Below, piece by piece: positions 6,001-9,000 of a stretch of DNA of 17,599 nt. Every line of letters begins with the position of its first letter. The first letter of the stretch is position 1. This stretch comes from a virus (lineage: Duplodnaviria > Heunggongvirae > Uroviricota > Caudoviricetes). The stretch lies in the IMG/VR virus record IMGVR_UViG_2826849342_000003. One strand, given 5' to 3'. Position numbers: made by a program.

Positions 6001-9000
6001 TAGACCTGTGCAGACTGACAACGAGGACAATGAATGTTAACGCTGGCCATGAAAGAACCTCAAAAGCCCGCATTATACATCAGATTCAACTAATTAGAGG
6101 CATCACCCCTGAGTTTAACGGACACTCCTTCCTGAAATAGAATGGCATCAGAAGGAGCTAATAATGAGCAGAAAAACCCAACGTTACTCTAAAGAGTTCA
6201 AAGCCGAAGCTGTCAGAACGGTTCTTGAAAATCAACTTTCGATCAGTGAAGGCGCTTCCCGATTATCCCTTCCTGAAGGCACTTTAGGACAATGGGTTAC
6301 CGCCGCCAGAAAAGGGCTCGGTACTCCTGGTTCCCGCACGGTGGCTGAACTGGAATCTGAAATTCTGCAACTGCGTAAGGCGTTAAATGAAGCTCGCCTT
6401 GAGCGAGATATATTAAAAAAAACAACAGCGTATTTTGCACAGGAGTCGCTGAAAAATACGCGTTAATCGAACAATGGCGACAACAATTTCCCATTGAAGC
6501 GATGTGTCAGGTATTTGGTGTATCCAGGAGCGGTTATTACAACTGGGTACAGCATGAACCCTCAGACAGAAAACAAAGTGATGAGCGGCTAAAACTGGAG
6601 ATTAAGGTGGCACATATCCGCACTCGCGAAACATATGGAGCCCGGCGGCTCCAGACGGAGCTGGCAGAGAATGGCATCATCGTTGGTCGTGACCGACTGG
6701 CACGTCTTCGTAAGGAGCTAAGGCTACGCTGTAAGCAGAAACGCAAGTTCAGAGCGACTACGAACTCGAACCACAATCTGCCAGTTGCGCCAAATCTGCT
6801 GAACCAGACGTTCGCTCCTACAGCACCAAATCAGGTCTGGGTGGCGGACCTGACGTATGTTGCCACACAGGAGGGATGGTTGTACCTCGCTGGCATCAAA
6901 GATGTTTATACGTGCGAAATTGTCGGCTACGCCATGGGAGAGCGCATGACAAAAGAGCTGACAGGTAAAGCCCTGTTTATGGCGCTCAGGAGCCAGCGCC
7001 CACCTGCCGGGCTAATCCACCACTCTGATCGAGGTTCACAGTACTGCGCATACGATTACCGGGTCATACAGGAGCAGCTTGGTCTGAAAACATCAATGTC
7101 GCGTAAAGGTAACTGTTACGACAACGCTCCGATGGAAAGCTTCTGGGGAACGCTGAAAAATGAGAGCCTGAGCCACTATCGTTTTAATAACCGGGATGAA
7201 GCCATCTCAGTAATACGGGAATACATTGAGATTTTCTACAATCGTCAGCGTCGTCACTCTCGTCTGGGGAATATCTCCCCGGCAGCCTTCAGGGAAAAAT
7301 ATCATCATATGGCTGCTTAAAAAAAGAACAAATGGTAGTGTCCGCTATTGCCAGTACACCTCAGATATCGCCAACCAGATCCGAACTCCCCATGATGGAT
7401 GCGAGCTGCTCCTCGTTGTAATCCCGCCCAAATACGGTATTACTGGTTTTTACGCAAGCCAGATCAGGCATTGAGGGGGCAAAAAACTCGTAATCACTCA
7501 GATCACCACGCTGGATAAGCTCACGAATCGTTGTAGGCTTGATCAGGCATTCGTAGTACTTGCCCATCCAGGCCGCGAACGGGGTACCGGAAAGCCCAAG
7601 AACCCTGATGTCTTTGTCCCGGATAACCTCAAGTAACGCACGGCGCTTCATGTGTGCTTCATCGATGATCAGCAGATCGATATTGTCAGGGAACTCACGA
7701 CGGATCAGCGTGTCAGCGCTGGCAATCTGAATCAGTCGTGACGGGTCATAGTTAGGGTGATCACGCCATACAAAACTGATTTCTTCCCACGGCAAACCGT
7801 ATTCGGTGAAACGCTCTGCTGTCTGGTTCAGCAGGATTGTGTACGGGCAAACGAACATCACCCGCATACCACGTTCAACCATTCCGGCTGTGACGAATGC
7901 TGCAAGACCAGTTTTTCCAGAGCCAGTGAGTGCGTACATCAGGTACGTGCGATGCTGTTTCCACTCGTGCCGCAGCTGGTTTAAACCGCGCTCCTGTGCA
8001 AAGTTTGGGGTGATTTTCAGCATGACGCCCCCTTGCTACGTGGTTTACCCGTTGCCGGGATCACGTCGATCTCATCACTAACGTATTGTTCAGGATTTCG
8101 TGAGCAGCGCAGAAGCACGATACCAGGAATGCCGTATAGCTTGAGTCTGCGCAGTTTCAGTATTGAACGTGCCCGTGGTGATGCTCTGTCCACCTCGATC
8201 GCGCACCGTTCACCAGATGGGGCAACGGCCACGATATCGACGAATCCGCGCTTACCGTTGCCCATATCAACCAGATAATTACGTTCGATCGCCAGTCCGG
8301 CATCACGCAATTTGGCAGCCAGCACATAATCAAACGTGACCTTGTCTTTTCCGGTGTAGAATTGGTTTCCGAGCAGGCTGACAACCACATTTTTGATGAA
8401 CGCGGTACTATTTCCACTGTGATAGTTGGCGTGATAATAATTTCACAAGAAACCATCCCGCCATATACAGTGATCTACCTAACCTATGGAGCTGTCTTTC
8501 TGGTAGTGCCCTTACGGGCACGGATGTTACAGATCTGCCCCCTTACCCCCTTCTTAGTAAAATTTCAGACAAAATAATTTCACATACAATTATTTCTCAA
8601 GAAACAATACCTTACTGAGGTTTTACTCCTTCCGTATCGCTACTGGCGAAATCATCCAGCCACGGCTGGCTCTCGCGTACTTCTGGACATACACCCGTAA
8701 CCGGGTGTTGGCGCTCCGTCTTGCCCTGTTGCCCTTCCTGAACGATACAGGCTCCTTGTACCACTCTTCCTGGTACACTCTCGGGTGATGCCTCTAATTA
8801 GTTGAATCCGATGTATAATGCGGGCTTTTGAGGTTCTTTCATGGCCAGCGTTAACATTCATTGTCCTCGTTGTCAGTCTGCACAGGTCTACCGCCATGGT
8901 CAGAACCCTAAAGGCCATGACAGATTTCGCTGCCGTGACTGCCACCGCGTTTTTCAGCTCACTTACACTTATGAGGCCCGTAAGCCGGGCATTAAAGAGC

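Follow-up and report, generated by a model that had tools for sequence, protein, structure and literature searches.

The 17,599-nucleotide stretch of the Caudoviricetes virus record IMGVR_UViG_2826849342_000003, here called the window, contains the 5' stump of an Eru1-type replication unit, lodged in a lambdoid prophage that has no stx genes and is full of insertion sequences (ISs). Two overlapping genes, both on the minus strand, are left of the unit. The first (8017-8403) encodes a small protein that we assign, from sequence profiles and a structural model, to an unannotated family predicted to lie within the PD-(D/E)xK nuclease superfamily and to carry a BamHI-like active-site pattern; the second (7364-8023) holds the first 220 codons of an Eru1A-type DEAH helicase of superfamily 2 (SF2), cut short by a copy of IS600. 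In an intact Eru1 locus the order is the small open reading frame (ORF), the SF2 DEAH helicase Eru1A, the Toprim primase Eru1B, and the DUF1367 protein Eru1C.

The identity of the module follows from its relatives. By megablast, a 1.4-kb segment of the locus matched 98 phage records, nearly all of them Shiga toxin (Stx)-converting phages (P13374, TL-2011c, phi191, Ss-VASD, and others), as well as 153 complete E. coli genomes. The gene order shared by P13374 and an E. coli Stx2a prophage is cI, cro, ORF34, a 125-128-aa hypothetical protein, a DEAD/DEAH helicase (506 aa), a Zn-ribbon/Toprim primase (323 aa), DUF1367, NinG, NinH, Q, and stx2AB; the pair occupies the lambda O/P slot of the early-right operon in phages of the P13374/TL-2011c type. 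The preliminary description of this DNA, made from the sequence alone, had taken the pair most simply as a replication module, and its position in the O/P slot identifies it as the front of the Eru1 unit (PMC8044961). As published, that unit comprises eru1A (helicase), eru1B (Toprim protein), and eru1C (DUF1367) and is present in the Stx phages TL-2011c, P13374, and phi191 (Llarena et al. 2021, PMC8044961); the phages of the outbreak strains O104:H4 and O103:H25 have it in place of lambda O and P (PMC8044961; PMC8951638). Phages with Eru1 have been reported to form less stable lysogens (PMC8044961). In the portions of these sources available to us, the small upstream gene is not in the eru gene table of PMC8044961, and neither PMC8044961 nor PMC8951638 contains the word "hypothetical" (protein) or a description of an Eru1 phage origin. 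Membership of Eru1 calls for eru1A, eru1B, and eru1C, each covered over more than 80% of its length at an identity above 80%; the window, which lacks the primase, DUF1367, ninG, and ninH, falls short of this and is a remnant.

Over its 220 codons, the window helicase is identical at 217 positions (98.6%) to residues 1-220 of the 506-aa DEAD/DEAH helicase of the E. coli Stx2a prophage. It retains a Walker A motif (GSGKT) and a DEAH box (LLIIDEAH) and matches the Pfam families ResIII (1.4e-15) and DEAD (8.4e-10), as an SF2 RecA1 lobe should. The stop codon, a TGA at 7361-7363 on the minus strand, is the terminal ..TCA (..CCTCA) of the IS600 right inverted repeat, so that the end of the reading frame after 220 of 506 native codons coincides exactly with the right end of the element, just as the preliminary description had it; about 43% of eru1A is left. 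Because the break precedes the Helicase_C domain, which spans residues 223-323 of the intact helicase, the window copy consists of the RecA1 lobe alone (motifs I to III), and the RecA2 lobe with motifs IV-VI is absent; IS600 inserted at the RecA1/RecA2 boundary. Within Walker A, the window has ALTGSGKT vs APTGSGKT (P32L, 7928-7930), a change at a proline that does not vary among four helicases with 66-80% identity to the reference, and probably a product of drift following inactivation. The nearest solved structures to the intact helicase are RadD, XPB/Rad25, and UvsW. We rejected a housekeeping identity for it: the NCBIfam RadD model gives a score of 90.6 against a cutoff of 720, and with a score so far under the equivalog cutoff the helicase is a phage gene, whose full-length homologues in P13374 and the E. 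coli Stx2a prophage stand in the Eru1 order. No further helicase pieces, primase, or DUF1367 were found in the window by tblastn. We likewise dropped the idea that the remainder of the helicase had moved next to the other, inverted copy of IS600, given that tblastn and blastn of the window revealed no more helicase or primase sequence.

There are five IS copies in the 17.6-kb window. The copy of IS600 that truncates the helicase (6108-7363, plus strand; orfA 6164-6466, orfB 6502-7320) has lost 8 bp from the tip of its left end, which abuts an IS1 variant (5342-6107, minus strand). It is 99% identical to the other copy, which is inverted relative to it (2479-3742) and complete at 1264 bp, with 99.7% identity over that full length to plasmid features annotated "IS3-like element IS600". 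A second IS1 (8784-9549, plus strand) splits the ORF34-like gene, which stands in the lambda cII position, into halves at approximately 9550-9654 and 8623-8783, and a further IS3-family element (14927-16131, minus strand; HTH_Tnp_1 orfA and rve orfB) sits within and disrupts the prophage's early-left region. Together, the truncating IS600 and its adjacent IS1 stand in for the helicase C-terminus, primase, DUF1367, ninG, and ninH. After this block the prophage picks up again, from 4733 to 3743, with the post-Q region and then the post-stx region; between them, the tRNA-stx2AB segment (approximately 1.8 kb in E. coli JNEC-KY204) is represented in the window by only about 27 nt. The prophage is an stx-less or stx-deleted relative of the Stx2a phages. 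Positions 4734-5341 contain a phrog_34160 gene truncated at its 5' end, an arrangement also seen in Shigella phages 75/02 and POCJ13.

The exact junction of helicase and IS600 had no match among species-representative genomes, and it recurs, with the same codon at the start of the small gene (see below), in one IMG/VR contig (L053). That contig is near-identical to the window over approximately 9.6 kb but has no IS1 in ORF34; therefore, the truncation of the helicase is older than the IS1 insertion, which is recent.

A mechanical ORF call places the small gene at 8017-8388 (minus strand), with a GTG start and 123 codons. Both this ORF and the overlapping helicase were found on the minus strand as first described, and the acidic residues noted there are present: D51 (8236-8238), E65 (8194-8196), and D67 (8188-8190). 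The native start lies five codons further upstream, at 8401-8403, where the window and L053 have GCG and where the JNEC-KY204 and IMG/VR alleles have ATG. Since the native ATG is lost and the GTG is not preceded by an obvious ribosome-binding site (Shine-Dalgarno sequence), the small gene is probably a pseudogene as well. At its other end, the TGA stop (8017-8019) and the helicase ATG (8021-8023) lie in a 7-nt overlap (ATGCTGA). The idea of a coupled pair holds insofar as this overlap is real; the partnership itself was overstated, as near-identical helicase modules can do without the small gene (see below). A replication defect had also been proposed, and the losses agree with it: the RecA2 lobe and the C-terminal domain of the helicase are missing, neither primase nor DUF1367 remains, and the native ATG of the small gene is lost. 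We regard as sound the conclusion that the prophage would be unable to replicate from this module.

The two ORFs are real genes and not chance open frames, and the codons of the small gene are under purifying selection. The small protein corresponds to P13374 ORF35, its homologue, and PHROGs assigns it to PHROG 1347 (phrog_1347), whose function is listed as unknown; it has no match in Pfam, NCBIfam, or PADLOC. Word-index protein searches gave only close relatives, with homologues at an E value of 1e-75, and the wider family came from an exhaustive profile search of 1.84 billion representatives, which recovered 184 relatives. In the largest allele cluster, the median ratio of nonsynonymous to synonymous substitution rates (dN/dS) is 0.08 at a dS of 0.88, and in the two E. 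coli clusters the medians are 0.34 and 0.39.

Two independent lines of evidence, a structural model and sequence profiles, agree on the fold, and the suggestion of a PD-(D/E)xK protein that was made from the residue pattern is thereby upheld. The AlphaFold2 model (predicted local distance difference test score, 80.6; predicted template modeling score, 0.75) has the topology helix, three strands, helix, strand, which corresponds, as modeled, to the alpha-beta-beta-beta-alpha-beta core of the superfamily; its structural matches include BamHI and OkrAI, and its resemblance to VRR-NUC is structural only. A profile of 39 members matched AF1548 (1y88) at an E value of 1.5e-4, aligning the I-E-x-D of the family to the I-E-C of AF1548 and ending there, just ahead of what we take to be the canonical lysine of that protein. 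Pfam REase_MTES_1575 (PF18741) gave weak matches in 23 of the 39 relatives (best E value, 2.7e-5), all under the curated threshold, and matched one long relative at 1.3e-5; the window protein itself has no match to it. The remaining weak matches with more than two members among the 39 relatives were to Hjc, Mrr_cat, AHJR-like, BamHI, NucS_C, and UPF0102. No non-nuclease family matched the small protein.

Across approximately 157 divergent relatives, residues of catalytic type are nearly invariant: D51 (146/157), E65 (155/156), D67 (156/156), S75 (156/156), K78 (151/155), and R94 (145/148), with P71-R72 (window numbering) also nearly invariant. Two departures from the canonical motif, D on strand 2 and (D/E)-x-K on strand 3, stand out. 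The position of the motif lysine is taken by the invariant D67, with an invariant lysine (K78) on the next helix, paired with S75; and an upstream glutamate, the first acidic residue, which most members conserve, is an asparagine in the enterobacterial alleles. BamHI has an active site composed of E77, D94, E111, and E113, in which an acidic residue occupies the lysine position, and the enzyme works. The small protein is likely to be catalytically competent.

The family is repeatedly tied to replication genes. A degenerate DNA signature pattern found 95 viral loci, every one of which (95/95) was confirmed by the hidden Markov model of the family. In all five stand-alone allele clusters (less than 70% mutual identity), the small gene is followed by an Eru1A-like helicase (67-98% identity), and in four of the five an Eru1B-like primase comes next; the fifth is the window-type cluster, in whose representative the helicase is in three fragments and the primase was undetected. 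A sixth small protein, 60% identical, has the same order. Among 53 longer relatives, the domain follows origin-binding domains characteristic of replication initiators, being C-terminal to DUF1376 (7 proteins), Phage_rep_O (5), DUF6291 (3), HTH_36 (3), or Lin1244_N (2); DnaT and Phg_2220_C domains also precede it, and the gene for one fused protein is followed by a DnaG-type primase. The literature that we searched contained nothing relevant on the small protein or on a nuclease domain in phage initiators.

Given the near invariance of catalytic-type residues, the strong purifying selection, and the recurrent replication-gene neighbors and fusions, we consider it somewhat better than an even chance that the small protein serves phage replication modules as an accessory DNA endonuclease dependent on Mg, and not as a part of the core replisome. 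In this proposal, it would act on origin-proximal or branched DNA of the phage itself, and nicking or cleavage would fall beside the site where the helicase and primase start. Other phages have the domain built into origin-binding initiators, between the N-terminal winged-helix domain and a C-terminal tail; in Eru1 phages it is a separate gene that would be expressed just before the helicase and, in the E. coli alleles, be translationally coupled to it. The gene would be dispensable if the core function resides in the helicase and primase, perhaps together with the Zn-ribbon C-terminal domain of the helicase.

Several observations weigh against this proposal. The AlphaFold2 model was built from an alignment of 6 sequences from two alleles, with confidence reached in only two of five models. 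In the literature searched, we came upon no experimental work on ORF35 or its relatives. A few stand-alone relatives adjoin terminase-like or tail-fibre-like genes, identified by reading the sequence alone; the terminase-like neighbor has no Pfam match. Catalysis is not certain, because the motif lysine is replaced and the first acidic residue is asparagine in the enterobacterial alleles. Those same substitutions would suit an inert nuclease fold serving as an adaptor, that is, an origin-DNA-binding or helicase-recruiting subunit comparable to the lambda O C-terminal domain or to a helicase loader. The place of the domain in multidomain relatives, where it follows the origin-binding domain of an initiator and precedes its C-terminal tail, fits an adaptor as well, as do the RepL/HTH_36-like DNA-binding proteins that occupy the same slot in other helicase modules and the overlap with the helicase start, which permits translational coupling. 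We nevertheless hold an adaptor to be unlikely: invariance over approximately 157 sequences falls precisely on the metal-binding D, E, and D and on the serine, lysine, and arginine, which would be unusual for an inactivated fold; enzymes of the BamHI type are active with an acidic residue at the lysine position; and near-identical helicases do without the gene.

The optional presence of the small gene also weighs against the proposal. We searched viral contigs with an alignment of four helicases and scanned six frames of the 3 kb upstream for the domain, which was present in only 17 of 80 Eru1A-like helicase loci. One locus (L149) has the small gene and others (L142-L147) have none, yet their helicases are 99.6% identical; what differs is a cleanly exchanged cassette of 589 nt (gene present) or 295 nt (gene absent), between flanks that are 94-99% identical. 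Helicases this similar, with and without the gene, imply that the helicase and primase do not need it in cis. Moreover, NUMOD4-HNH_3 homing endonucleases fill the slot upstream of the Eru1A-like helicase in other loci, with the same 7-nt run-on, as would fit a selfish element. RepL/HTH_36-like winged-helix proteins fill it elsewhere; the loci with one or the other kind of gene include L129, L136, L117-type loci, L112, and L152. In addition, small-gene alleles with 39% amino acid identity sit between flanks approximately 96% identical on either side (98.6% for the upstream flank). The slot upstream of the Eru1A-like helicase is a variable hot spot. In L147 and L149, a conserved 19-codon mini-ORF (MKTTSQNYYLISTGAAQWS) lies approximately 60 nt upstream of the helicase ATG and overlaps the helicase start, with a GC-rich hairpin before it; it falls inside 116 nt that are conserved with or without the small nuclease gene and may be a leader peptide or a coupling device.

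The sporadic presence of the gene in L149 and its absence from L142-L147 is the behavior of free-standing homing endonucleases. The small gene could accordingly be a selfish cassette of that kind, established upstream of an essential helicase and spreading by cutting alleles that lack it, with its link to replication merely positional. The bona fide homing genes in the slot, the divergent alleles between conserved flanks, the terminase-like and tail-fibre-like neighbors of some relatives (named from sequence reading, with no family match), and a weak similarity to the Vsr/DUF559/MTES_1575 group all speak for such a cassette, and we rate this main rival as possible, if on the doubtful side. It does not sit easily with a dN/dS of 0.08 at a dS of 0.88. 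The protein, at 105-140 aa, has no separate DNA-recognition domain, while the HNH genes of the slot have NUMOD modules, and it has been fused in frame, repeatedly, to several unrelated families of origin-binding initiators, which is unusual for homing genes. Furthermore, what is swapped is an entire non-coding cassette along with the gene, and not the ORF alone.

The preliminary description also allowed that a nuclease-helicase pair might be a fragment of another type of system. Pairs of a nuclease and an SF2 helicase are common in anti-phage defense; the helicase core partially matches PADLOC PbeA, type IV mREase, DpdF, and Cas3; and a type II restriction-modification pair is near in the same prophage. 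PADLOC-DB v2, however, gives nothing for either small-protein allele, the primase, or DUF1367, and the helicase matches are to the generic SF2 core only. The genes stand in the O/P slot of the early-right operon, ahead of primase, ninG, ninH, and Q, and the small protein has relatives in which replication-initiator domains are fused on. A defense or anti-defense fragment is therefore very improbable, and we dropped it for want of a specific PADLOC match.

Upstream of the small gene is a non-coding cassette (8404-8622, minus strand) that is a candidate origin or regulatory region. In the window it consists, in order, of two GTTTCTTGwGAAATwATT repeats, a G5-N3-G5 element, a hairpin (GTGCCC-GTAA-GGGCAC, 8508-8523), and a near-invariant block, TAGGTTAGGTAGATCACTGTATA, that includes a GATC site. 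At least six divergent alleles follow the same plan of allele-specific palindromes or repeats, G5-N2-3-G5, GC hairpins with GTAA or GAA loops, and the GATC block, continuing with a second allele-specific site that shares the motif of the first and then a ribosome-binding site. The hairpin has a GNRA loop, and the cassette was seen in related loci L001, L002, L007-L101, and L140-L181. In approximately 35 loci where the small gene is absent, a conserved block (TAGGTTAGGTAGATC) lies upstream of the helicase ATG at a distance of 130-242 nt; in loci that have the gene, this distance is 450-568 nt. Among the few alleles compared, the repeat motif of the cassette appears to track helicase type and not small-protein allele. 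Because loci that lack the small gene still have the block ahead of the helicase, and because the repeat motif appears tied to helicase type, the cassette is a reasonable candidate for the replication origin of the Eru1 phages.

Searches for other signals in the region gave little. Rfam, at its gathering threshold, had no match in the cassette; RNAalifold found no consensus structure and no covariation over 19 cassette alleles, and the compensatory changes seen by hand in one allele group are not general; and a scan of 7300-10100 for promoters and terminators returned nothing above shuffled controls.

A bolder reading connects the cassette with the protein: the family would be an origin-targeted nuclease module of replication initiation, brought to the origin by fusion to initiator winged-helix domains or by being encoded inside the origin cassette, where its nick or cut would let the helicase and primase enter or would bring about a change in replication mode. 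We think this rather unlikely as it stands; if true, it would add an unrecognized component to the Eru1 phages linked to the most virulent outbreaks of enterohemorrhagic E. coli.

Beyond the replication locus, the window bears other features. Beside cI, at 10761-13234, genes for a 507-aa DNA methylase and a 317-aa restriction endonuclease form a type II restriction-modification pair in the immunity region, and this stretch is 98.9% identical to the P13374 segment with ORF31 and ORF30. Three RNAs were matched at the Rfam gathering threshold: the STnc100 small RNA (4167-4372, minus strand), the isrK Hfq-binding RNA (13851-13926, plus strand), and the C4 antisense RNA (13951-14038, plus strand), the last two adjoining a Rha-family regulator gene at 14128-14544. 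At the left end, a Mu/P1-like segment (1-2478) with a gene for a Mom-family protein (289-1026), an invertase of the Gin/Cin type (1218-1811), and tail-fibre sequence is joined to the lambdoid remnant through the complete copy of IS600.

As a locus, this is an ordinary case, one more IS-inactivated prophage module in a Shigella-like genome. The module and the fold are already known; the small-protein family is uncharacterized, and it matters more, being approximately 120 aa long, conserved, under selection, and of nuclease fold, with no model in Pfam, NCBIfam, or PADLOC. No description of its initiator fusions or of its behavior as an optional cassette was found in the literature searched. Control of the start of Eru1 replication bears on toxin output, and the non-coding cassette offers a concrete candidate for the origin.

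Compared with the published Eru1 unit, the window keeps the gene order and the position after cI, cro, and ORF34, and its cI, cro, and restriction-modification flanks are approximately 99% identical to those of P13374. It differs in lacking eru1B, eru1C, and the stx genes, and its small protein is another allele, 39% identical to P13374 ORF35; the published definition, in the portion of it available to us, does not include a small upstream gene. Eru1 shares with lambda O/P its position in the early-right operon, and relatives of the small protein are fused to the N-terminal domain of Phage_rep_O. In contrast, there is no similarity to O or P themselves, and the Eru1 helicase is an SF2 enzyme of the RadD/XPB/UvsW type, not a loader for the host DnaB. 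An origin-targeted nuclease module, if that reading were true, would be a non-covalent counterpart of the HUH-type origin nickases.

Free-standing homing endonucleases (the NUMOD-HNH enzymes and, as a PD-(D/E)xK example, I-Ssp6803I) resemble the small gene in being optional and intergenic beside a conserved essential gene, and HNH homing genes share the identical slot in related loci; the small protein differs in its want of a DNA-recognition module, its strong purifying selection, and its recurrent fusion to initiators. VRR-NUC (PF08774) is similar as a stand-alone PD-(D/E)xK protein of approximately 100 aa that is found in phage replication modules beside SF2 helicases. Neither the window protein nor the 39 relatives match the Pfam VRR-NUC model, however, and the signature of the small-protein family combines E-x-D with an S-x-x-K on the helix that follows; the domain of this family is often joined to the winged-helix domains of initiators. 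The nearest relatives at the sequence level are REase_MTES_1575 and the AF1548/Hjc/NucS group, which have E-x-K where the small-protein family has E-x-D. With BamHI and OkrAI, the small protein shares the four-residue pattern in which an acidic residue replaces the catalytic lysine; it is far smaller than these enzymes, gives no sign of sequence-specific cleavage or of a partner methylase, and has asparagine as the first acidic residue in its enterobacterial alleles.

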